Counted from the first letter of the stretch, positions 24,627 to 52,823 are shown. The stretch: 64,000 nt of DNA from an uncultured Chloroflexia bacterium (GCA_963780425.1 CAWABZ010000001.1:13084-77083), one strand, 5' to 3'. Program-made: numbers and translations. Notes: a model not told the origin generated them from the sequence alone.

Positions 24627-24739
24627 GAACGGACCCCCTTGCGATAGACCGGTCCTCGACCGGGCGGGCCGAAGTATGGCGACGGCCCTCCGTGCGAACG
24701 ACCATCCGACGGTCCGGGGGTCGACCAGTACACTCGCCG

Positions 24740-25615
24740 GTGATGACGCAGAACGCCGAACGAGATGCCCCGCCGACGCGTCACATCACGACGCGGTCGA
24801 TCGTGGCCGTGCGGGGTTCGACGCTCGAGATCCGCGGGGACAGGGTCGTCGGGGAGGCACCGCTCGAGATCCGCGCGGCGGGCCCCGACCAGGATCCGGT
24901 CGCGGTCGCCGTCACGATGCGGACGCCCGGGCACGAGGCAGAGCTGGCAGTCGGCTTCCTGCGCACGGAGGGGCTGATCGACGGTCCCGAGGTCGTCGGC
25001 ACGGAAAGCGGCGATCCGGTCACGCTCAACCAGCCGGATGACACGATCGTCGTGCGCCTGTCCACCCCGTTCGACGACTCGGCCGTGGCGGAGCGCCATT
25101 TCGTCGCGACCGCCTCGTGCGGGATCTGCGGCAAGGCGTCGATCGACGAGGTCGTACTGCGCTGCGAGGTCCTGCCGGAGGGGCCGGTCGTGCCACGGTC
25201 CGTGGTGATCGCCCTGCCCGACCTGCTTCGCGCCGCCCAGAAGGCGTTCGATGAAACGGGCGGGCTCCACGCTGCGGCGCTGTTCTCGCCGCGCGGCGAG
25301 TTGATCGCCATCCGCGAGGACGTCGGCCGGCACAACGCTCTCGACAAGCTCGTCGGGTCGCAGGTCTTCGCGGGTGCGCTCCCGCTGCACGACAGGATCC
25401 TGATGGTCTCGGGTCGGGTCAGCTTCGAGATCGTCCAGAAGGCCGCGGTCGCGGGCGTGCCGATCGTCGCGGCGGTGTCGGCGCCATCGGATCTGGCGGT
25501 CGAGACCGCGGAGCGTCTCGGTGTGACGCTCGTCGGGTTCCTGCGCGGGGACCGGTTCAACGTCTACAGCCACGACCGCCGGATCGACCTGCGCGACCTG
25601 ACGGGCTGGGGCTGA
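24740..25615 (+). CDS. fdhD: Formate dehydrogenase accessory sulfurtransferase
   Basis: MRTPGHEAELAVGFL, SCGICGK, TGGLHAAALF, REDVGRHNALDK, SGRVSFEIVQKA; TACACT -10 just upstream. Confidence 0.93.
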   Translation: MMTQNAERDAPPTRHITTRSIVAVRGSTLEIRGDRVVGEAPLEIRAAGPDQDPVAVAVTMRTPGHEAELAVGFLRTEGLIDGPEVVGTESGDPVTLNQPDDTIVVRLSTPFDDSAVAERHFVATASCGICGKASIDEVVLRCEVLPEGPVVPRSVVIALPDLLRAAQKAFDETGGLHAAALFSPRGELIAIREDVGRHNALDKLVGSQVFAGALPLHDRILMVSGRVSFEIVQKAAVAGVPIVAAVSAPSDLAVETAERLGVTLVGFLRGDRFNVYSHDRRIDLRDLTGWG

Positions 25616-25624
25616 CGGCACGTC

Positions 25625-25654
25625 CCCGCCCATGCCCAGCCCGCCCATGCCCAG
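25625..25654 (+). repeat. Two tandem copies of a 15-bp unit
   Basis: CCCGCCCATGCCCAG at 25625-25639 and 25640-25654. Confidence 0.8.
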
Positions 25655-25661
25655 CCAGACG

Positions 25662-25807
25662 GGTGTGCCTCTCAGACTGCAGACGGTGCTCGAAGGAGGG
25701 CTGGGGTGCGCCCCGAAGGCCCATGCGTGCTTGCGGAAGCACAGCCCAGGGTCCAAGACAGACCCACGGGCATGCTCGAGGTCCGTTAGCAGTCTGGGAA
25801 GCACACC
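25662..25807 (+). ncRNA. Candidate structured RNA or long inverted-repeat element upstream of the HTH-nuclease gene
   Basis: 19-bp stem 25662-25680/25789-25807 with one mismatch and one G-U, extended by GACGG/CCGTT and CTCGA/TCGAG, plus internal hairpins. Confidence 0.5.
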
Positions 25808-25859: not shown

Positions 25860-26626
25860 ATGCAGCGCGACCTGCCTCGCGATCGCCTCATGCAGCGCGA
25901 GGTCCAGACCCGTCTCCGTCGACTCGAACGCAAGGTCGGCGACGACCTGTTGCGATTGCGAACGGACGCCGCTGCCACGAAAGCGCAGGTCGCACGCGCC
26001 GCGGGTGTCGACCGAACGTTCTACGGTCGTGTCGAATCTGGGGATGCCCATCCGAGCCTGAAATCGCTTACGGCGGTCGCAGCGGCACTCGGGGCAGAGG
26101 TTCTGTCCGTCTGTACGCGGGTAGTGGCCCTCGGCTCACCGATCGTCATCAGGCGCGGATGGTCGAGGCCGTCCTTGGTCAGCTTCATCATGTGTGGCGC
26201 CCGCATCTTGAGGTCGCCGTGAGCCGGCCGGTCAGGGGGGTCATCGACGCCGTGCTCGAACGTCGAGATGGGCCGCTGTTGGTGATCGGTGAGTTCGAGG
26301 CGGCCCTTCCGCGGCTTGAACAGCAGATCCGATGCGATGTCCGAGAAGGCCGCATCGATCGGGTCGAGTGACCTGGTCGGGCCGCGGCCCGATGCCTGCT
26401 GTGTCGAGGTTGTTGATCTTGCGCTCGACCGAATCGACGAGGTCGGTCGCTCATCGACTCGAGGCGACCCTCCGGGCGGCGTACCCGGCCTCCACGCGCA
26501 AGGCGATCGCCGCGCTGTGCACGGGGTCGCAGTGGCCAGGCAATGCGATCGTCTGGGTACGGATCGAGGGTGACCGGGTCGAACTGCTCGATGGCCCACC
26601 GAGAGGTGTCGCCCGTAGGGCGGTGA
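25860..26626 (+). CDS. XRE-type HTH fused to PD-(D/E)XK-like nuclease domain (about 4 frameshifts)
   Basis: KAQVARAAGVDRTFYGRVESGDAHPSL HTH, then LEVAVSRPVRGVIDAVL..LLVIGEFE; pieced from ORFs starting 25632, 25844, 26289 and 26332. Confidence 0.65.
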
Positions 26627-26629
26627 GAC

Positions 26630-27733
26630 CTAGGCCTTTCGGGCGCTCGTTCACGAATTCGAAGCCGAACCGGCCCTTGATGCAGAGGTGGCCGTCCGTG
26701 ATGGACGAGTCGAGAGGCGATGTGACCTTCAGGATGCGATCGTCCTGGACGTGCAGGTCGACGGCACAGCCCACGCCGCAATACGGGCAGATCGTCGATG
26801 TGACGGTCTGGGCGGACTCGTCCCAGGTGCCGGCCTCGCGCATGTCGTACTCGGGCTTGGCCATCAGCGCTCCGGTCGGGCACACGCCGATGCAGTTGCC
26901 GCAGTACACGCAGGCCGATTCGGGGAGCGGGACGGCCTGTTCGGTCGAGATCCGAGCGTCGAATCCGCGACCCGCCACCGCGATCGCGAACGTGTTCTGG
27001 GCATCCTCGCCACACGCCTCGACGCACTTGTAGCAGAGGATGCATTTCGCGTAGTCGCGCACGTAGAGGTCGTTGTCGATCTTCGTCGGCTGGCGCGACA
27101 GTCGCCGCGAAGGCCGCCTCCTCGCCGGTCGGCGCGTGGTGGTGCCCCGCCTCGTGCGTGTCGCGCTCGCCGGGTGCCGCCGGCGCCGCAGGCGCGCCGA
27201 ACCGTCCCGGATCGGCGCCGTACCGGTCCATGTACGCGTGGATCGTGCCGTCGGGCGCGGCGGGGCCCGCGAGCGAGACGTCGACCGACGAGCCGAGGAA
27301 CTCCAGCACGACCTTGCGCGACGTGCGGACGCGGTCCGAGTCGGTCTGGACCTCCATCCCCGGTTCGACCGGTCGCGAGCAAGCGGGGGCGAGCACGCGG
27401 GAACCCGTGACTTCGACGACGCAGACCCGACAGACGTTGACCGGCGTGAGGTTGTCGGCGTAGCACAGGGTCGGCGTGTCGATGCCGAGCACGCGGCACG
27501 CTCCCAGGATCGTCGTCCCGGCGGGCACCGTCACCGGTCGTCCATCGATCGTCAGCTCGACGGGCGGTGGCGCCGCGACCGGCGGTGGCGCCGGCGGCCT
27601 GGACGGGTCGGGCCGGCGGGCTCAGGACGATCTCGGTAAGCGGCTGTGCCGCCGGCGCCTGCCCGGCATGCGGCGAGTTCGGGTCCGGCGCAGGGTCGCG
27701 TGACATCGACAGCCCGGTCGTGTCCTCGCTCAT
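26630..27733 (-). CDS. FDH iron-sulfur subunit (2Fe-2S, two 4Fe-4S, and the Mo-bisPGD N-terminal 4Fe-4S motif); frameshifted; 3' end uncertain
   Basis: PTLC..VNVCRVC..ACS, CILCYKCVEAC, CVYCGNCIGVCP, TICPYCGVGC..HLCIKGRFG; given frame runs on to 26451. Confidence 0.85.
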
Positions 27734-29580
27734 AGCGCCACCAGATCGGGCTGGCGCAGCGCCGATTCGATCGCCGACGAGGCGGTCTGACCGAGCCCGC
27801 AGATCGACGCATCGCGCATGGCCTGCCCGACCTCACGCAACAGCGTGAGCTCCTCATCACGCGATCGGACGCGCGAGCCGGCCGCGAGGCGCGCCAGCAG
27901 TTCTTCCTGGCGCACGCTGCCCACGCGGCACGGCACGCACTGGCCGCACGACTCGTCGCGGAAGAAGCGGGCGATGCGCCGCAGCGTGTCGACGAGGTCG
28001 ACGGTCTCGTCGAACACCATGATCACGCCGGAGCCGAGCGTGGCGCCGGCCGCGCGGGTCGCCTCGAACGTCAGCGGCAAGTCGAGGGACGATCGGCCCG
28101 ACGAACACCCCGGCCGCACCGCCGAGCAGGATCGCCCGGATGGAGCGCCCGCCCGGGACGCCCCCCGCCATCGCGATCAGGTCGCCCAGCGTCGCCCCGA
28201 ACTCGACCTCGTAGACCCCGGGCCGCGCGACGTGCCCCGACAGGCAGAACAGCCGCGGGCCGGTCGAACCGTCCGTGCCGATCGCCGCGTACGCCTCACC
28301 GCCCATCTCGATGATCAGCGGGACGTTGACCAGGGTCTCGACGTTGTTCACGACGGTCGGCTTCCCGAACAGGCCGACCTCGACCGGGAACGGCGGCTTG
28401 TTGCGCGGCTCGCCGCGCTTGCCCTCGATCGACTCGAAGAGAGCGGTCTCCTCCCCGCAGATGTAGGCGCCGGCGCCGCGGCGCACCTCGATATCGAACG
28501 CGAAACCCGCGCCCAGGATGTCCGGCCCGAGCAGGTTCGCGCCACGTGCCGCACCGATCGCGCCGCGGATCGCGGCCTCGGCTTCCGGGTACTCGCCGCG
28601 GATGTAGATATAGCCCTGGCTGGCACCCGTGGCGAAGGCGCCGATCGTCATCGCCTCGACCACAGCGAAGGGGTCGCCCTCGAGCAGCACCCGATCCTTG
28701 AACGTGCCTGGCTCCGACTCGTCGGCGTTGCAGACGAAGTAATGCGGCTGCGCGGCCTGCGATGCCACGGCCGCCCACTTGCGACCCGTCGGGAAGGCGG
28801 CACCGCCGCGGCCCATCAGCTTGGACGCCGTGACCTCGGCGATGACCGCCTCGCTGCCCATCTCGATGGTCTTCGCCAACGCCGCGTACCCGCCGTGTGC
28901 CCGGTAGTCGTCGAGGGACGCCGGGTCGACCACGCCGACCCGCCGGAGCAGCCGCAGCGACGGATCGCCGGTTCTGCGGGACGGGCGGCGGCAAGCGGCG
29001 TGAGCTGCGCGCCGTCGAGACGCGCGACGATCCCCGCGGCGTCGATCGGGGCAGCGCTTGCGACGGTCGGGTGCTCGCCTGCCGTCGTGAGCATGGCCGC
29101 CGGCGCGAGGTCGCACAGCCCAAGGCAGGGCGAACGGTGCCAGCCGACTTGACCGTCGCGCGCCGCCGCCCCCTCCGGACCGACCGACCGGCCGAGGTCC
29201 TCGCAGATCCGCTCCGCCCCGGCCAGCCGGCAGGCGATGTCGTCGCAGACGTGGGCCATGATCGGCGGTCGCGGGGTCGTGGCATACAGCGCGTAGAACG
29301 TGGCGACGCCGTACGCCTCCGCGGGCGCGACCGCGAGGCGTCTCGAGATGTAGTTGAGGGCAGGCTGGCTGATCCAGCCGATCCGATCCTGGACGGCGTG
29401 GAGGGCCGGGAGCAGTTGGGACCGCCTCGCCCGCGTCTCGTGACCGCCGCGCGCGGCGTGGCCGTCGACACCGGGCCGCCGGGCGCCGCCCGTCCAACCG
29501 GATTCCGGCGGACCGAGGGCCGCGTCCACGGCGGCACGCTCGGCCGGGGAAGCCAGCGGCCCGATGACGTGCAGGTCCAT
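27730..29580 (-). CDS. NuoE-NuoF fusion: NAD/FMN-binding diaphorase subunit of FDH (frameshifts near 28975 and 28090)
   Basis: [74 protein letters not shown]. Confidence 0.9.
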
Positions 29581-29629
29581 CGCGCCGAGTGTAGCCCCGA
29601 GGCGACGATGCGGGCGTACGATGCGGGCC

Positions 29630-30205
29630 ATGCCGAAACGCCGCTGGATCCAGTTCAGCGTCGACTGGCTGGAATGGTCGCAGCGCAACCTCGTGGCTGC
29701 CGTCCGAGCGACCGATCCGGCCAACCTCCACCGGCGGCCGGGGCCGCGGGCGCCATCCATCGCCTTCCACGCCTGGCACATGGCACGCTGGGCCGATCGA
29801 TACCAGGCCACCCTGCCGACCTCGGCCGCGCCGACCGACGTCGATGGGTCCCGCGAGATCTGGATCCGAGACGATGTCGTCGGGCCGTGGGGCCTCCGCG
29901 ACATCAGCCTCGGTGACTTCGGCGGGACCGGTGCGGGCCTCGACGACGAAGCCTCAGCCGCGCTTCCGCTCCCAGACGCCTCGGCGTTGCTCGACTACAT
30001 GACCGCCACGTTTGGTGCATTCGAGGATCGCGTCCGTGCCATCGACGACGACGCCGTACTCGACATCGTCTATGTCGACCTGTATGGCGACGAGTCGACC
30101 ATCGCCGATTCGATCGCGAATGCCACGTCGCACGCGGATCGCCACCTCGGCATGATCGAGGCGCTCCGTGGTGTGCTCGGCGACCCCGAGACGGTGACGG
30201 TCTAG
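29630..30205 (+). CDS. DinB/YfiT family protein
   Basis: [17 protein letters not shown] metal-His pattern; TACGAT -10 seven nt upstream. Confidence 0.8.
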
Positions 30206-30218
30206 ACGGATCGGGCGC

Positions 30219-31037
30219 TCAGACCCTCAGCACACGGACGTCCAGCGGCTCGGTGCGGCCGCGCAGCGTGAGTGTCCGCAGCTCGAGGCTGTCGTCCAGG
30301 CCCGCGGCGGTCGCCGATGTCGAACTCACGAGGATCTCACCAGCGCCCGCCGCCGAGGCGAGCCGGGCGGTGACGTTCACGCTGTCGCCAAGCGCCGTGA
30401 AGTCGGTGACGGTATCGCCGACGGTGCCGACGTAGGCGTCGCCCGTGTGGATCCCGATCCCGAGTGGGAGCCACGGCTGCCCGGTCTCGCCGTGGCCGGT
30501 GGCCAACAAGAGGTCGCGTCCTGCTGCGACTGCTGCGTTCGGGTGCTCGGGGCCGGCCAACGCGGGGATGAATAGGGCGACGACCTCATCACCCACGTAC
30601 TTGTCGATCACTGCATTGTTTTCCAGGAGCACGCGCGTGGCCTCGTGGTAGAAGCGATCGAGGAGCCTCCTGAACGCTCCGGCACCCATACCCTCGGCCA
30701 TGGACGTCGAACCGCGGACGTCTGCAAAGAGCAGCGTCAACTCGATTTCGGCACCACCGCGTCCCCGTTCGAGGGCCTTGAAACAGAACCCGCAGATGCT
30801 CGGGCTCTTGGCCCATGGGCCCCGGTCGAATAGGCGCATGATCGGCGCGCCGGGTCCGGCGAATGGAGCGGCACACATCTTGCAGCGAGGCGAGCTCGGA
30901 ACCATCCGGAGGAAGCCTCGCCCGGTTGCGAATTCCCCGGCCTTGCCCTCGAGGATCGCCTTCCACATCGGGTCGGAGACGAAGGTGGAATCCCCCTCGG
31001 GATGGTCGCCGGGTGGCTGGTCCGGGGCGTCGCTCAT
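30219..31037 (-). CDS. Class III adenylate cyclase with N-terminal CxxC..CxxC module
   Basis: FADVRGST, KYVGD, GIGIHTG, DFTALGDSVNVTARL; CKMC and CGFC. Confidence 0.88.
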   Translation of the reverse strand: MSDAPDQPPGDHPEGDSTFVSDPMWKAILEGKAGEFATGRGFLRMVPSSPRCKMCAAPFAGPGAPIMRLFDRGPWAKSPSICGFCFKALERGRGGAEIELTLLFADVRGSTSMAEGMGAGAFRRLLDRFYHEATRVLLENNAVIDKYVGDEVVALFIPALAGPEHPNAAVAAGRDLLLATGHGETGQPWLPLGIGIHTGDAYVGTVGDTVTDFTALGDSVNVTARLASAAGAGEILVSSTSATAAGLDDSLELRTLTLRGRTEPLDVRVLRV

Positions 31038-31041
31038 GTGG

Positions 31042-32956
31042 TCACGCCGGAACGGCCTCCCCGAGCTTCTCGATACGGATCGCCGTCGCCTTGAATTCCG
31101 CGGTTCCGGACTTCGGGTCGGTCGCGTCGATCGTCAGCAGGTTCGTCGCCACGTCGTCCTGGAAATGGAGCGTCATGAAGGTCAGGCCCGGCCGCAACGA
31201 CGGGTCGATCCGGATAGGTACCTCGACATGCCCACGTCGAGAGACTGCACGCACGCGCTCGCCATCGGCCAGACGATATGCCTCGGCGTCTTCCGGAGAG
31301 ATATCGAGGGACTCGCCCCGCCGCAGCGGCGAGGTGTAGCCGGCGGTCTGGACGCCGGTGTTGTACGAGTCGAGCCGTCGACCGGTGGTCAGCCGGATGG
31401 GGTAATCGTCGGTCAGCTTGTCGACCGGCGGGTCATGGTCGACCGGCACGAACGGCGCCCGGTTCCCCGGCACCGGGTCCTCCCACAACCGACTGTGGAG
31501 GAATAGCTCGCCGGGATGGGTCTCGTCGTAGCACGGCCACTGGATGCCGCCCAGCTCCTCGAGCCGCCTGTAGGTCATCCCGGCATGGACCGGCGAGAGC
31601 GACCTGACTTCGTCCCAGACGGCCTCTGCCGACGAATCGCCCCAGTCGGAGCCCATCCGCTTCGCGAGCTCGAAGATGATCTCGAGGTCGTCGCGGGCGC
31701 CGTCGGGCGGGTCGACCGCCTTGCGGACCCGCTGCACCCGTCGTTCCGAGTTGGTGACCGTGCCCTCGCCCTCGGCCCAGGCCGCGCTAGCCGGCAGGAC
31801 GACGTCGGCGAGCTCGGCGGTCCGGGTCAGGAACAGGTCCTGGACGACCAGCATGTCGAGGCCCTCGAGCAGCCGAATGGCGCGCTTCTGATCGGCCTCC
31901 GACTGGACCGGGTTCTCGCCGATGCAGTAGACGGCGGTCAGCTCGCCTCGCTCCATCGCGTCGAACATCCCGGACAGGTGCCAGCCGCGCGTCGGCGGGA
32001 TGGTCACGCCCCAGGCGGCGTCGAACTTCGCGCGGAGCGTGTCGTTCTCGACGTGCTGGAAGCCGGGCAGTCGATCGGGGAGGGCGCCCATGTCGCCGCC
32101 ACCCTGGACGTTGTTCTGGCCACGGAGCGGGTTCACGCCACTCCCGTACCGCCCGACGTGGCCGGTCAGCAACACGAGGTCGATCAGCGACAGGACGTTG
32201 TCGACCGCGTTGTGGTGCTCGGTGATCCCGAGGGTCCAGCAGATCATCGCCCGCGGCGCCGTCGCGAAGGCATGGGCGAGGTCGCGAATGGCCTCGGCCG
32301 GCACGCCGGTCTCGCGCTCGGCGTAGTCGAGCGTGTACGACTCGACCTTGGCCTTGTAGGCGTCGAAGTCGGCGGTCGCGCGCTCGATGAACGCGCTCGT
32401 CGTGAAGGCCGGCGGCGATGATCTCGCGCCCGACCGCGTTCGCCAGGGCGATGTCGCTGCCGACGTCGAGGCCGAGCCAGCTGTCGGCCCATTCCGCGGA
32501 GGACGTTCGACGTGGGTCGACGGCGTAGAGGCGCGCGCCCTTGCGCACCGCCTTGAGCACGTGATGGAAGAAGATCGGATGCGTCTCGCGGGCATTGCTG
32601 CCCCAGAGGACGATCAGATCGGTGTCCTCGACCTCACGGTATGAACTTGTGCCGCCACCGGCACCGAACACGGTCGCCAGACCGGCGACGCTTGGGGCGT
32701 GTCAGGTCCGGTTGCAGCTGTCGATGTTGTTGCTGCCCAGCACGACCCGGCTGAACTTCTGTGCCGCGAAGTTGACCTCGTTGGTCGCCTTGCTGCAGCT
32801 GAAGGTGCCGAACGTGGTCGGGCCGTGGGCCGCTTTCGCCGCCTGGAATCCGGCGACCACGCGGTCGAGTGCCTCGTTCCAGGTGGCGGGTCGCAGCTCA
32901 CCGCCTTTCGCGTCACGGACCAGTGGCTGGGTGAGCCGAACGTAGGGTTTCGCCAC
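31042..32956 (-). CDS. fdhF: Selenocysteine-containing formate dehydrogenase catalytic (molybdopterin) subunit; UGA at 32704-32702; frameshift near 32400
   Basis: NNIDSCNRT-UGA-HAPSVAGL in frame, GSNARETHP, PLRGQNNVQG, LTTGRR, EFKATA. Confidence 0.9.
32673..32689 (-). promoter_or_regulatory. Bacterial SECIS hairpin
   Basis: GUCGCC-GGUCU-GGCGAC beginning 12 nt after the UGA; loop and position resemble the E. coli fdhF SECIS. Confidence 0.85.
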
Positions 32957-33106
32957 TCAGGTGCCTCTTACGGATGACGACCGCCCGAGTGTACGCCGGG
33001 CACGATCGGGGCGACGCGGTTGAGCAATTCGTACCCTTGACGGGCGACCGGGTGGGACCCACCCTTCCGCTCGACCGCCGATGGGCAGTGGCGGTCGAGG
33101 GGAACG

Positions 33107-33667
33107 ATGACCAGCGACGCCGTCACCATCGACCATTCCGAACCAGCTCCGCTCTACTGCTATCGACATCCGGACCGCGAGACCTACGTCCGATGCGGTC
33201 GCTGCGACCAGCCCATCTGCATGGGCTGCGCGATGCAGGGTCCGGTCGGCATGCGCTGCAAGAAGTGCGGCACGCCCTCGCGCGATCCGCTGACGATGAT
33301 GACGCCACAGCAGCTGGCGTTGGGTGGGTTGGTGGCGATCGGCGCCGGGACGATCGGTGGGTTCATCGGCATCCAGATGGGCTTCTTCCTCGCGTTGTGC
33401 CTCGGGCCCTTCGCCGGGGGATTCATCAGCGAGGCGGTCCAGCGCGTGACCGGGTATAAGCGCGGCGTTCGGATCAAGGCACTCGTCCTGGGCGGCATCC
33501 TGGCCGGCGTGTTGATCGCGGCGGCCGTCTACGTGCAGATGTCATTCGGCGCGTACGTCGGTGAGGAGGGGGCGCCCGGGATGGAATTCCTGTACACGAC
33601 GGTGCTCACCGGGGCGCTCGTCTATGTGGTGGCCGCGATGATCGGGGCGTATTCGCGGCTTCGCTAG
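33107..33667 (+). CDS. B-box-like zinc-finger membrane protein (rhomboid N-terminal-type finger, no protease domain)
   Basis: CYRHPDRET..RCGRCDQPIC..C..GPVGMRC..C followed by four TM helices. Confidence 0.75.
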   Translation: MTSDAVTIDHSEPAPLYCYRHPDRETYVRCGRCDQPICMGCAMQGPVGMRCKKCGTPSRDPLTMMTPQQLALGGLVAIGAGTIGGFIGIQMGFFLALCLGPFAGGFISEAVQRVTGYKRGVRIKALVLGGILAGVLIAAAVYVQMSFGAYVGEEGAPGMEFLYTTVLTGALVYVVAAMIGAYSRLR

Positions 33668-34714
33668 TTCAGGGCCACCCCCGCGCCTGACTCGACCCCA
33701 CCGACCTGCCACGTCTCGACGCCTTCCGCGTTGAGCCTGGCGATCAGCGCCCCGACCTGGTCGCCCGCGACCGCAGCGAGCAACCCGCCGCTCGTCTGCG
33801 GGTCGTGCGCGAGCGCGACGCAGCTCCGGCGCGCACGTCGGCGGCGACGCCCAGCGCATCGGTGACGAAACGGCGGTTGTGGGTCGCGCCATCGGTCTCG
33901 ACTCCCGCGCGAGCCATGTCGAGTGCGCCCGGGAGCACGGGCAGGGCCGCCGCATCGAAGACGAGCCGTGCCCCCGACGCGCGCGCCATCTCGAGTCCGT
34001 GGCCGAGAAGCCCGAACCCAGTAACGTCGGTCGCGGCGGTCACGCCGTTCGCCACGAGCACCTCGGACGCGGCCCGGTTGAGGGTGCGCATCCCCTCGAT
34101 CGCGGCGGCCAGGTCGGCCGGATCCGTCCGCCCTTGACGCGAGCCGCTCACCAGCAGACCCGTGCCGAGCCGCTTCGTCAGGATCAGGGCGTCGCCGGGT
34201 CGCGCCCCGCCCTTGCGCAGCAGGCGGTCGGGATGGCCGCTCCGATGACCGCGAGCCCGTACTTCGGCTCGGGGTCGCGGATCGTGTGGCCGCCGGCGAG
34301 CGTGCCACCCGCCGCTCGGACCGTGTCGGACGCGCCGCCGAACACCTCCGCCATGATGTCGCGCGGCAGCTCCTCGGGGAATGCCGCGATCGACAGCGCG
34401 AACAGGACGCGGCCACCCATCGCGAAGACGTCGCTCACCGCGTTCGCGGCCGCGATCTCACCGAACGTCCGGGCGTCGTCGACCAGCGGTGGGAAGAAGT
34501 CGAGCGTCCCGATGATCGCGAGGTCGTCGCTGACCCGGTACGCGGCTGCGTCATCCGGCGGGTTGAGACCCGCGATCAGCTCGTCCGGCGCCGCCTCGGC
34601 GCCCAACCCGGCGAGCGCATCCGACAGCAGGTCGGCGCCCAGCTTCGCGGCGCAGCCTCCGCAATCGGTCAGCGTCGTGAGGCGCAGGGCCGGGATGTCG
34701 GACAGCGTCGTCAC
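33664..34714 (-). CDS. selD: Selenide, water dikinase, Cys-type (frameshifts near 34240 and 33830)
   Basis: CGGCAAK, DDAAAY, TLDFFPP, AANAVSDVFAMG, GGHTI, TDVTGFGLLGH, DPQTSGGLL. Confidence 0.92.
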
Positions 34715-34778
34715 CCGGCGATGATAGGCGTGCTCGTGCGTCGGGTCCCCGTTTCGCGGCCACGATTACCATCGTGTC

Positions 34779-34875
34779 GGGAGCGGTCGGGTCCCGGTGG
34801 GTCCCCCGGTCTTCAAAACCGGTGACGCCGCGCTCGGCGTGGCGTGGTGGGTTCGACTCCCACGCGTTCCCGCCA
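34779..34875 (+). tRNA. selC: tRNA-Sec (anticodon UCA)
   Basis: CCGGT-CTTCAAA-ACCGG anticodon arm, long variable arm, GTGGG-TTCGACT-CCCAC T arm, G discriminator and encoded CCA; TACCAT -10 six nt upstream. Confidence 0.95.
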
Positions 34876-34885
34876 TGGAGGATCG

Positions 34886-36295
34886 ATGTCGTCGAAGCCG
34901 GTCGTCCACCCGCGCCCGCCCAGCGTCGAGACCGTACTCAAGGTATTGCGGCAGCGCCACGGGGAGATCATCGACGACGCCGATGAGTCTGGTGCTCTCG
35001 TCGCCGTCGCGCGCACGACGATCGATGACGAGCGCACCCGTCTCGGTGCGGGTGAGCCTCCGCGGTCGATCGAGGCGATGGCCGACGCCGCGGAAGAACT
35101 GCTCGATCTGTACCTCGATCCACATGCCGCCGTCCCAGAGCCGGTGATAAACGCGACGGGCGTGATCCTCCACACCAACCTCGGACGAGCGACGTGGCCC
35201 GACGTCGCAGTCGAGGCCGTGGGTCTCGCTGCTGGGTGGGGCATGCTCGAGCTCGACCCGGCAGACCGGGCGGCGTGGGCCACGGTTCCACCTGGCGGAG
35301 GACCACCTCGTCGCCTTGACCGGTGCGGGTGCCGCGATGGTCGTCAACAACAACGCGGCGGCTGTCGCCATCGCCGTCGGCTTGGCGGGTACGGGCGGCG
35401 TCATCGTGTCGCGCGGCGAGCTCGTCGAGATCGGTGGCGGCGTCCGGATCCCCGAGATCGTCGAACGTGCGGGAGCGCGCCTGATCGAGGTCGGGACCAC
35501 GAATCGCACACGCACCGCGGACTTCGAACCGCCACTTCGCTCTGGCGACGCGCGGGTCGTGCTGCGTGTCCATCCGTCCAACTTCACGATGGCCGGCTTC
35601 GTCGAGGAGCCTGATGCGGCGGCAGTGGCCCGGCTGGCCCACGAGCACGGCGCGATCGTCATCGATGACCTTGGATCGGGAGCCTTGCTTGACACCGAAC
35701 GGTTCGGACTGCTGCACGAGCCGACGCCGAACGAACGACTGGCGCTTGGCGCCGATGTCGTCACGTTCAGTGGCGACAAGCTCATCGGGGGACCGCAAGC
35801 CGGTCTCCTGGTCGGCCGCGCCGACCTCGATCGAACGACTCCGGCGCGATCCGCTGGCTCGGGCGATGCGTCCGGACAAGGCGATCCTCGCCGCCGTGGC
35901 CGCCACGCTCGGCCTCTATCGGGCCGGTGTCGCCGCGACGGAGATACCCGTGTGGCAGCGCATCGCGACTCCCGCCGACGAACTCAAGGAGCGCGCCGGC
36001 TGGATCTCGCAGATGTGCGCGGCGTTCTTCGCGCCACGCGCCGGCGTCGAGGTCGTTGAACTCGCGTCGCCGATCGGCGGGGGCTCATTGCCCGGGTCAG
36101 ACGGTCCCGTCCTGGGGGATCAAGGTGCCATTCCGATCTGCGACGGATGCGGCTGCGGCGCTGCGCCTCGGAGACCCATCGATCCTGGCACGAGTCAGCG
36201 ACGACGCGGTCGTCTTCGATCTTCGGACGGTCGGCCCTGGTGCCGACGGGGACATCGTCCGGCGGATCGGGGAACTCTCAGCGACCGGCGCATGA
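34886..36295 (+). CDS. selA: L-seryl-tRNA(Sec) selenium transferase (frameshifts)
   Basis: [61 protein letters not shown]. Confidence 0.92.
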
Positions 36296-38066
36296 CCGTC
36301 GTCGTCGGCACCGCGGGTCACATCGATCACGGAAAGACCACGCTGCTGAGGGCGCTCACCGGCATCGACGCCGACCGGTTGCCGGAGGAGCGACGACGCG
36401 GGATGACGATCGACGTCGGCTATCGCGCACCTCGCCCTCGACGACGGATCGACGATCGACTTCGTCGACGTGCCCGGACACGACAAGCTGGTCGGGCAAC
36501 ATGCTCGTCGGGGCCGGCGAGATCGATGCCGCGATGCTCGTCGTGGCCGCGGACGACGGGTCGCGCGCGCAAACGCTCGAGCACGTCGCGCTGCTCGACG
36601 CGCTCGGGATCGCGCCGGCGATGGCGGTCGTGACGAAGATCGACGCCGTCCCGTCGGAGCGGGTCGAGGAGGTGCGCGGGCAGGTCGCCGCGCTCCTCGC
36701 CTCGACCTCACTGACCGGCGCGCCCGTGCTCGCCGCCTCCGGCGTGACCGGCGAGGGCGTGGACGCTGTGCGCGCAGCGCTCGAGGAGCTGCAGGGTCGC
36801 GTACGCCACTCGGCCCGCCCGGCGACCCTCGCGATCGATCGGGTGTTCACGATCAAGGGTCGCGGCGTGGTGGTGACCGGCACCCTTCGCGGCGGGCCAC
36901 TCGCCCGCGGCGAGGACCTTCGACTCGTTCCCGGTGAGCGCAGCGTGCGGATCCGCGAGATCCAGGTCCACGGGACCGCGGTCGAGCGGGTCGGCGAGGG
37001 CGGTCGGACCGCTCTGAACCTGGCCGGCGTCGCCGAGGCCGACCTGCATCGGGGGATGGTGCTGACCGCCGACCCGGCGGTCGCGGCGACCGACCGCGCT
37101 CCTCGCCGCGTTACGGACGTCGGTCGTCGACCGGACCCGAGGGCGCATGCATGCCGGCACGGCAGCCGTCGATGCCACGGTCGGGCGGAGCGGGCGCGAT
37201 GCCCTGACGCTGCCCGACGGGCGAGCCGCCGGGATCGTGCGTCTTGCCGCGCCGATGGCACTCCGGCCGGGCGATCGCTTCGTTGTGCGGCGCGGCGCTC
37301 AGGCAGACCCAGTGGGCGGGGTCGTCCTCGACACCCTGCCTCCGCGCGGGGTCTCCCGGCGACGCCAGACCGTGGAGCGGGTGGCGGCGCTCGCGCGATC
37401 CGGCTGGCGCCGCTGACGCTCGGATCGACCTGCACGGTGCCGTCGACGGCCGACTGGCGGCCGATGTAGCCGTGCTCGCCGCGGATGCGGCGATCGCTGC
37501 CGTCGATCCCGAGGCCCCGCTCGTCGATGGTTCGCAACGCCGTGGCTCGAGCACTGCGGCGGGCGGTGACGATCCGGCGCGATGAGTCGGCCGCCGCCGC
37601 CGCAGCCGTCGTCGACCGGCTCGTCCGAGAGGAGCGGCTGGTTCGCGACGGCGAGATCGTCCGCCGACGCGGTGTGCGTGCCGCGGCCCCCGACCCCGCG
37701 CTGTCGGCCGCGATGGACCGGCTGGAATCGGTTCTCGACGTTGCCGCACCGCCGTCCCTGGCCGACGCGGCGCGCGCCGCAAGCTGTCCGCCCGCAGGCA
37801 TCCGGGAGCTGGAACGGGCGGGGCGCATCGTCATCCTCGACGCGGACCTGGCCTACGCCATGAGCACCTATCGCGACCTGACTGCGCGCGCCCTGTCGAT
37901 GGCCGCGGACGCCCCGCTCACCCCTGCCGCCCTCCGCGATGCCACAGGTACGAGCCGGAAATACGTGATGGCGCTCCTCGAGGACCTCGACCGCCGGGCG
38001 ATCCTGCGGCGGACGCCGGCCGGGCACGTGCCGGGGGCGAAGGCACCCGCCGCCGTCGGGCGATGA
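36292..38066 (+). CDS. selB: Selenocysteine-specific translation elongation factor (frameshifts)
   Basis: [47 protein letters not shown]-terminal winged helix [10 protein letters not shown]. Confidence 0.92.
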
Positions 38067-44987: not shown

Positions 44988-45302
44988 TTGGAACATCCCC
45001 ATGTTCCGTCGCGCACGTGAAGCGGGGTTTCGAGCCCCTTCCGGTGCGATCTGGAACGTCACCGCGTTCCGAACCGCGCCGGAAACCACGTCGCCCAGGT
45101 GCTTACGCTGAGTTCGTAACGTCGGGAGGTTCCACCGGCCTGCTTGGAACATCCCCATGTTCCAATCAGCGAAGGGCAGCGCCCTCGGCTCCGGCTCGAT
45201 CGCCCATTGGAACTCTATGGATGTTCCAAACGGCGAAGCAGCGCCCGATTCCGGCGGTCACTCCTTCGCTCAGCCTCTGATTGGAACCTCGTGATGTTCC
45301 AA
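44988..45302. repeat. Array of five interspaced palindromes TTGGAAC-N8/9-GTTCCAA
   Basis: Copies start at 44988, 45051, 45144, 45207 and 45281; gaps 41, 71, 41 and 51 nt; copies 1 and 3 share CTTGGAACATCCCCATGTTCC. Confidence 0.8.
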
Positions 45303-52750: not shown

Positions 52751-52823
52751 CGGCAGTCTGCCAGGCACGCGTTCGACCGATCACCGTGTGCGCCGACACG
52801 CTCGGCACGTTAGCCTCGCGCCG

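Follow-up and report, generated by a model that had tools for sequence, protein, structure and literature searches.

A helix-turn-helix protein with a predicted PD-(D/E)XK-like domain and its candidate partnership with dispersed inverted-repeat DNA elements in Limnocylindria

Why does a gene for a DNA-binding, nuclease-like protein, broken into pieces and preceded by a long hairpin, sit between genes for formate dehydrogenase (FDH)? The question is raised by a 64,000-nucleotide stretch of DNA, here called the window (C1:13084-77083), from the genome of an uncultured Chloroflexia bacterium (3.6 Mb in 19 contigs, 85.7% complete, about 70% G+C). Homologues carry the names Candidatus Limnocylindria or Limnocylindrales (Chloroflexota); the Limnocylindria are an abundant, uncultured lineage of soil and freshwater. 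First come lysA, a membrane-protein gene and fdhD (plus strand), followed by a 245-nt spacer and the broken helix-turn-helix (HTH) gene (plus strand); past it lie fdsA-N and fdsB/fdsG on the minus strand. Next are a DinB-like gene, a cyclase gene and the gene for the catalytic FdhA. An original prediction, made from this sequence alone, had taken the HTH gene for a compact inserted element and a candidate RNA- or hairpin-associated nuclease system.

The neighbors on either side are FDH genes. To the left of the cassette, fdhD (24692..25615, plus strand), encoding the FdhD/NarQ sulfurtransferase, is intact as a single 307-aa ORF (Pfam FdhD-NarQ, 220.6 bits). To the right, fdsA-N (26630..27733, minus strand) encodes, by its Pfam matches, the short Fe-S subunit (2Fe-2S, 4Fe-4S, Molybdop_Fe4S4) of a split NAD-linked FDH. 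The HTH gene and fdsA-N are convergent, as had been noticed, with the HTH stop codon at 26624-26626 and the end of the Fe-S gene at about 26630-26640. The match to catalytic FdhA (31072-32944, minus strand) contains one in-frame TGA, besides a frame change near 32409, and a tRNA-Sec gene (34779-34871, plus strand; Rfam, 70.6 bits) is present in the window; the FDH is therefore probably a selenoprotein. The FDH genes (26630-32944) are split, and their order is permuted: the 2Fe-2S/4Fe-4S/Molybdop_Fe4S4 module has a gene of its own downstream of fdsGB, and the catalytic subunit is encoded upstream of fdsGB, with the cyclase and DinB-like genes in between. In some other genera the fdsA-N match lies in an open frame of 930-1230 aa, which might be an unsplit gene. 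The idea that the Fe-S gene is an fdhA cut by insertion, the rest of Fdh-alpha (31072-32944) being left on the 'wrong' side, was rejected, as short fdsA-N is intact elsewhere. Its orthologue in genome G006 is an intact 401-aa frame with the same end point, and the same end residue recurs in many other genomes, so that the short form is natural and involves no truncation.

The HTH gene itself (25860..26626, plus strand; 254 aa) is split by 1-base indels at 26100, 26335, 26384 and 26610. These were typed by alignment with L029, a 1,664-bp short-read contig that is 98% identical to the window and carries the gene intact (P0001, 305-aa ORF): the window lacks one T at 26100 and has an extra C at 26335, an extra G at 26384 and an extra C at 26610. 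Three-frame translation gives MQRDLPRDRLMQREVQ...GVDRTFYGRVESG for the HTH piece and ...HLEVAVSRPVRGVIDAVLERRDGPLLVIGEFEAALPRLEQQIRW..., then ...VSRLLILRSTESTR...WPGNAIVWVRIEGDRVELLDGPPRGV, for the later pieces, with the core motif (HLEV..RGVID..VIGEFE..RLEQQIRW) spread over three frames. The initial reading of the gene as an XRE-type HTH followed by a restriction-endonuclease-like core, obtained after about four indel repairs, is upheld by this translation, by Pfam, by AF2 modeling and, weakly, by Foldseek. Further indels relative to L029 are found in fdsA-N, at 26637 and 27092, and several occur in the spacer; fdsA-N has another indel at about 27560. The indel at 27092 accounts for a long ORF (26188..27534) in which the Fe-S gene reads through into the HTH gene. 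This read-through, pointed out in the original prediction, exists, but it is a wrong-frame continuation, most likely an assembly artefact.

Whether the frameshifts are errors or decay was weighed at the scale of the genome. A codon-model Viterbi scan identified about 541 candidate frameshifts, present on all 19 contigs and moderately clustered, at a mean of 1.5 per 10 kb. Related metagenome-assembled genomes (MAGs) with few, long contigs bear 'MFD' isolate names, which we take to denote long-read assemblies, and relatives in few contigs are less complete than many-contig relatives. All window-L029 differences are single-base indels except for one 2-base intergenic deletion; there are no larger deletions and no nonsense changes. 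Given the intact 98%-identical contig and a long-read MAG profile with some 540 candidate frameshifts, the four indels are probably assembly errors rather than signs of gene decay. The competing explanation, which we find somewhat doubtful, is that the indels are real, the window copy is a true pseudogene and the cassette is decaying in this strain together with the FDH and selenocysteine genes. The local density fits it, at about nine indels in 1.5 kb and about 14 apparent frame changes in about 11 kb (26000-37100), roughly eight times the genome mean. The genes hit (the HTH gene, fdsA-N, fdsB/G, fdhA and the sel region) form one functional block, and the neighbors fdhD and lysA, like the distant rpoC, are intact. 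Against decay speak the purely single-base character of the differences in genes, the occurrence of comparable clusters elsewhere in the genome, and an assembly profile typical of an uncorrected long-read MAG. Two other clusters, at C5:225-229 kb and C13:210-213 kb, favor neither error nor decay. The 26000-37100 cluster may mean that this region is poorly polished, perhaps at low coverage, or that the formate/selenium block is truly decaying. On the practical side, frameshifts and ORF read-throughs in long-read MAGs can pass for pseudogenes and gene overlaps.

The N-terminal part of the protein is an XRE-type HTH (25947..26108, plus strand) with the recognition helix DRTFYGRVE. On the read-through it scores 31.9 bits with Pfam HTH_31 (cut-off 27) and 30.4 bits with HTH_3 (cut-off 23), and the same two families are annotated on intact homologues, which confirms membership of the XRE family. 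In the full-length AF2 model the HTH was matched by Foldseek to C.BclI, C.AhdI, ClgR and HipB. Since the full-length model gave only HTH matches, the C-terminal domain of about 170 aa (26104..26626, plus strand) was modeled alone.

With an alignment of 62 orthologues and paralogues, AF2 produced a model of this domain with a pLDDT of 90.8 and a pTM of 0.86, containing an alpha-beta-beta-beta-alpha-beta core (H14-26, E31-39, E45-53, E58-65, H71-83 and E98-106) that has the topology of the PD-(D/E)XK core. Foldseek searches against the PDB returned weak matches (best E 5e-3, probability 0.99, TM 0.33-0.41), and the top neighbors were nearly all PD-(D/E)XK proteins: AF1548, Bax1, the R2 RLE domain, Can2/Card1, MGME1, McrC, XisH and AddAB. 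Residues E36, D48, E63 and R70-L-E-Q..R-W..K81 (numbering of the C-terminal construct) are invariant across the 62 sequences, at identities down to 43%. The three acidic residues fall on strand 1 (Glu), strand 2 (Asp, in GxID) and strand 3 (Glu), followed after strand 3 by the helix RLEQQxRW..K; in the window their codons are 26210-26212, 26246-26248 and 26291-26293. The usual Lys slot (26297-26299) is occupied by Glu in the window copy, ahead of the helix RLEQQIRW..EK, and across the family it varies among Q, E, Y, H, M and F, so the canonical D...(D/E)-x-K motif is missing. Active PD-(D/E)XK variants with E or Q in the Lys slot exist, namely BamHI (E-x-E) and BglII (E-x-Q). Assignment of a PD-(D/E)XK-like fold is thus reasonable on the strength of the model, and the possibility raised at the outset that the protein lacks a nuclease fold is not what the prediction returned.

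Profile searches of Pfam, PDB sequences, PADLOC and PHROGs gave no match for the C-terminal domain. The earlier statement that the unit carries no known transposase also stands, Pfam and NCBIfam yielding HTH matches and no transposase profile. No methyltransferase or endonuclease genes are adjacent; the neighbors are fdhD and fdsA-N both in the window and at no fewer than 17 other loci. Clustering at 50% identity puts this small family in 825 clusters, out of 1.84 billion representatives; it consists of proteins of about 250 aa with an N-terminal XRE HTH and a C-terminal PD-(D/E)XK-like domain, seen here only in Limnocylindria.

The spacer upstream of the gene holds an inverted-repeat (hairpin) element of about 146 nt (25662..25807), identified by its minimum free energy (MFE) fold and by a covariance model (CM), R1, which matches it at 89.3 bits (C1:38747-38888, corresponding to 25664-25805 of the window). 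The 5' arm begins GGTGTGCCTCTCAGACTGCAG and the 3' arm ends GCAGTCTGGGAAGCACACC. Inside lies a central palindromic hairpin, GTGCTT-GCGG-AAGCAC (25727..25742), which forms a conserved column block in alignment A3 and has GTGCYT/AAGCAC half-sites in common with the arms; each element contains three copies of the GTG..CAC half-palindromic motif. The element was originally regarded as a structured leader, and it is indeed located about 50 nt upstream of the first ATG of the HTH gene, with an MFE fold that is a four-way junction (z = -2.5 against shuffles). That it is an RNA leader or riboswitch acting in cis on the HTH gene is nevertheless highly improbable. Rfam gives no match to the 146-nt hairpin even at E = 10, arm mismatches are G-U in 29 cases and A-C in 42, R1 scores both strands of the element, and copies occur downstream of the gene and at unrelated sites. 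As there is no G-U excess in the arms, the constraint appears to act at the level of DNA rather than on a plus-strand RNA, and the RNA half of the predicted RNA- or hairpin-associated nuclease system is not supported.

A 15-bp tandem duplication (CCCGCCCATGCCCAG x2; 25625..25654) adjoins the 5' arm of the element. It was at first described as flanking, a label that does not apply because the window contains no repeat downstream of the HTH gene; only the upstream element remains there. Short tandem repeats adjoin hairpin elements in many other loci as well, for example in the spacers of L034, L037, L038, L040 and L043, with units of 12-25 nt and up to about 14 copies in L034, and may represent hairpin slippage or element history. 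Between element and start codon, most orthologous loci conserve a GATAAG-N10-15-GTTCA(C/A)T motif (region given as 25995-25860; e.g. GATAAGC ... GTTCACT), which may be the promoter or operator of the HTH gene. Elsewhere in the window, at 52753..52768 on the minus strand, a pattern search and genome scan located a lone exact type-A arm motif (GTGCCTGGCAGACTGC) for which no partner arm was recognizable. The pattern search gave three matches against 0.75 expected, and the lone copy may be a relic half-element.

The window element belongs to a dispersed family. In 16 further species the spacer separating fdhD from the gene is occupied by elements of the same architecture, which combines long arms with a central GTG..CAC hairpin and inner stems that contain TCGA. 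These elements were aligned by plain MAFFT and the covariance model, with manual anchors, as a naive inverted-repeat finder had given non-homologous stems in several loci and was replaced. Across the 16 orthologous loci, 83.9% of arm cells are paired, compared with 73.7% after shuffling and 30-38% when the arms are slid against each other, and 42 arm cells have changed on both sides, compared with 18 in shuffles. The genome that contains the window has solo copies at C5:238479, C8:632384 and C12:456842, besides some weaker matches. These copies occupy unrelated intergenic sites, mostly just after gene 3' ends; one is between two convergent genes. Six other genomes searched with R1 have about 4-19 copies each, and 16 of the 23 best elements in these six have no family gene within 1.5 kb. 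Solo elements, all intergenic, number 5-20 per genome.

Three arm types were distinguished: A (GTGCTTCnCAGACTGCAG), B (GTGACnnnCAGTCAGCAC) and C (GTGCCTGnnAGnCCCCA). Arm types differ between genomes, and in six of seven genomes the solo copies have arms of the same type as the gene-linked copy; the seventh, G044, has solo arms of another type. Among copies within one genome the interiors have diverged while the arms are kept. Type A arms go with the HTH recognition helix DR[TS]FYGR, type B arms with DRSH[VI]TR and type C arms with DRSYYSR. Helix sequence thus seems to track arm type, a correspondence that is confounded by phylogeny, as is the match between arm type and genome.

The elements are also tied to the gene. 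In most orthologous loci a second copy lies directly 3' of the gene, and R1 also detects copies flanking several paralogues, making element-gene-element the basic unit. The gene is not single-copy. R1 places elements to its left and right in L031-34, 36, 38-40, 42-45, 57, 64, 89, 92 and 149, and on one side only in about ten more loci. Orientation of the downstream element relative to the upstream one, judged by CM score, is inconsistent, being minus in seven cases and plus in six. In the family loci (950 kb), about 40 of some 47 elements abut the gene. In a test free of assumptions about the repeat, 19 of 55 loci had an upstream flank that matched the downstream one, against 5% expected; among them are loci missed by R1 and paralogues whose repeats are quite different. 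For many paralogues no flanking repeat was detected. One locus with no R1 match, L058, has 117-nt inverted repeats that are 95% complementary. The paralogue there (L058:6762-7959) lies within nested inverted repeats of 117 nt at 95%, 29 nt at 97% and 22 nt at 86%, which give this 1.2-kb unit the look of a small insertion sequence (IS).

The 145-nt elements could in principle be associated with the gene by accident, as miniature inverted-repeat elements (MITEs) of some other transposon or as REP-like terminators. Most elements are indeed solo, as are the 16 of 23 counted above, and accessory DNA collects generally in the fdhD/fdsA-N gap, a hot spot for it. We consider this improbable, for besides the abutment of most family-locus elements with the gene, distribution across genomes follows the protein. 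In a family-level sample of 30 FDH loci, elements occur in the two that have the gene and in none of the 28 devoid of it; in L149, the gene-bearing locus from another genus, they lie on both sides. Of 81 family-level genomes, 32 encode the protein, and the six in which R1 elements were found all belong to these 32 (hypergeometric p about 0.003). Moreover, one distant family member has repeats of another family around it. This gene, at C8:25031-25684 of the window's genome, is intact, encodes 217 aa with an HTH and E..D..EAE, and has GGAAC/GTTCC palindromes (TTGGAAC..GTTCCAA) on both sides, within C8:24780-25920. GGAAC/GTTCC palindromes form a second dispersed repeat family, with 48 motif matches in the genome, including window positions 45051-45302.

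How the unit came to lie in the FDH locus was approached by comparing the same gap in related genomes. In several other genera the fdhD/fdsA-N gap is empty (72-330 nt), and in others it holds different cargo: a VapBC-like pair in L134 (genome G023, of the same genus as the window's genome) and in L147, a chloramphenicol-phosphotransferase-like P-loop kinase in L135 and L142, or membrane-protein genes. With the gap empty or otherwise occupied elsewhere, this convergent gap is, as gene content indicates, a variable spot and recurrent landing site for accessory genes, of which the element-gene-element unit is one occupant. These comparisons agree with the suggestion that the HTH gene has no functional relation to FDH. 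At the gap, the gene and its elements either both occur or are both missing, and the protein is absent from most genomes with an FDH locus.

The description of the gene as a compact inserted element is therefore right in part: it sits in a variable spot whose counterparts are empty or differently filled elsewhere, but the insertion is not recent. At least 17 species, with proteins 57-75% identical, have the unit at this one site, which argues that it is not actively hopping. Synteny across relatives, one of the observations that were to speak against an inserted nuclease system, is thus present, while the gene has paralogues and a nuclease-like fold in the model. The window's genome (G000) lacks, at orthologous sites, solo elements that other species have. 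Intergenic spacers and flanks are too diverged for exact boundaries to be read, and neither a target-site duplication nor a precise empty site is definable at orthologous sites.

Taken together, these data lead us to hold, with slightly better than even confidence, that the HTH and PD-(D/E)XK-fold protein forms a REPIN/RAYT-like partnership with the inverted-repeat DNA elements of about 145 nt. In such a partnership the HTH would read the 18-nt arm sequence of the elements, and the putative Glu/Asp/Glu metal site of the nuclease-fold domain would nick or cut at the hairpin or cruciform. Cutting would copy, move or maintain the elements in trans, much as RAYT/TnpA(REP) acts with REP/REPIN, although the enzyme would be unrelated. 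What the data show is the architecture, the association of gene and elements, the genome-specific arms, the polymorphism in presence and absence and the predicted fold; arm reading by the HTH, cleavage activity and mobility of the elements are inferred. The hairpin-associated part of the original prediction survives in this form, through the tie to hairpin repeats and the predicted nuclease fold.

The main competing explanation sees in the protein either an ordinary XRE transcription factor that regulates its own gene or a DNA-binding protein of the nucleoid type; its nuclease-fold domain would be catalytically dead and serve oligomerization, DNA looping or ligand binding, the repeats being operator arrays. 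Several features of the protein fit this picture: its HTH is closest to controller proteins of restriction-modification (R-M) systems, ClgR and HipB, and its canonical Lys is missing from a slot that varies. The three GTG..CAC half-palindromes per element resemble operator sets, the lack of G-U strand bias puts the constraint at the DNA level, and the gene keeps a stable place beside FDH genes in many species. Regulation alone is still unlikely in our view. Elements flank the gene to left and right and also occur at the 3' ends of genes, one of them between convergent genes where there is no promoter, and the complementarity of the arms is kept by two-sided changes that independent operators would not need. 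The three acidic residues at catalytic positions are invariant down to 43% identity, and gene and elements are gained and lost as a unit, the protein being absent from most genomes with the FDH locus.

If the partnership is real, it could go further than a variation on a known theme. It is possible, though we put it forward tentatively and as short of probable, that the family represents an undescribed repeat-enzyme class, in which an HTH-guided PD-(D/E)XK nuclease processes hairpin or cruciform elements of about 145 nt, spreading or maintaining them as an independent analogue of RAYT/REPIN, with paralogues serving different repeat families in the same genome. In the literature we found no description of such an HTH-nuclease/hairpin-repeat partnership. 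REP/REPIN-RAYT is, to our knowledge, the main case in bacteria of a 'sequence population' maintained by an enzyme that is dedicated to it and inherited vertically, and that enzyme is, as far as is known, always an HUH transposase. REP/REPIN-RAYT 'REPtrons' were reportedly treated by Nunvar (2010), by Ton-Hoang (2012) and by Bertels and Rainey (2011); the literature on them includes PMC3479197, PMC5581495, PMC8266576 and PMC3733652. A second, unrelated enzyme class in the same job would mean that partnerships of this kind evolve convergently. It would also provide a new DNA-processing protein, specific for both sequence and structure, whose HTH/arm code can be read, and would account for a number of 'orphan' palindromic repeats and 'XRE regulators' found in Limnocylindria.

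With the REP/REPIN and RAYT (TnpA-REP) 'REPtrons' the Limnocylindria system has several traits in common. Dispersed intergenic palindromes accompany one dedicated gene bracketed by copies; the genome-specific repeat sequence is that of the copies beside the gene (in six of seven genomes, phylogeny being a confounder); the gene persists vertically at one locus for long periods; and solo copies are polymorphic in presence and absence. It departs from REP/RAYT in having an XRE HTH and PD-(D/E)XK-fold protein in place of an HUH/Y1 (IS200/IS605-like) transposase, and elements of about 145 nt, whose arms measure 18-34 nt and whose interior is branched, in place of 20-40-nt REPs or REP doublets. Copy number is low, at 5-20 per genome, and the host is an uncultured class of Chloroflexota rather than Proteobacteria.

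With the PD-(D/E)XK superfamily the protein shares the predicted a-bbb-a-b core with E, D and E at the ends of strands 1-3 and, like BamHI and BglII, a Lys slot with Glu or Gln. Some members of that superfamily, to which the Rpn/YhgA-like 'transposase_31' proteins also belong, are multi-copy and linked to DNA rearrangement. Unlike known members, the protein has no sequence-level match in Pfam or the PDB, no conservation of any kind in its Lys slot, an invariant RLEQQxRW..K helix after strand 3 and no methyltransferase partner, and its activity is putative. The HTH superposes on those of C.BclI, C.AhdI, C.Esp1396I and ClgR at 0.5-1.0 A rmsd with 25-35% identity. C proteins and small XRE regulators bind repeated palindromic sites beside their own genes, a likeness to the candidate sites here. 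Unlike C proteins, the protein is three times longer, carries a nuclease-fold domain and has no adjacent R-M genes, and its candidate binding sites are 145-nt repeats that flank the gene on either side and recur at other places in the genome. Finally, like MITEs and their parent IS, the elements are short, non-coding, bounded by inverted repeats, located between genes, and present or absent among related genomes. They differ in that no target-site duplication is definable and no known transposase family is involved, and in that interiors have diverged while arms are kept, the gene being flanked by whole elements with both arms rather than by single terminal repeats.
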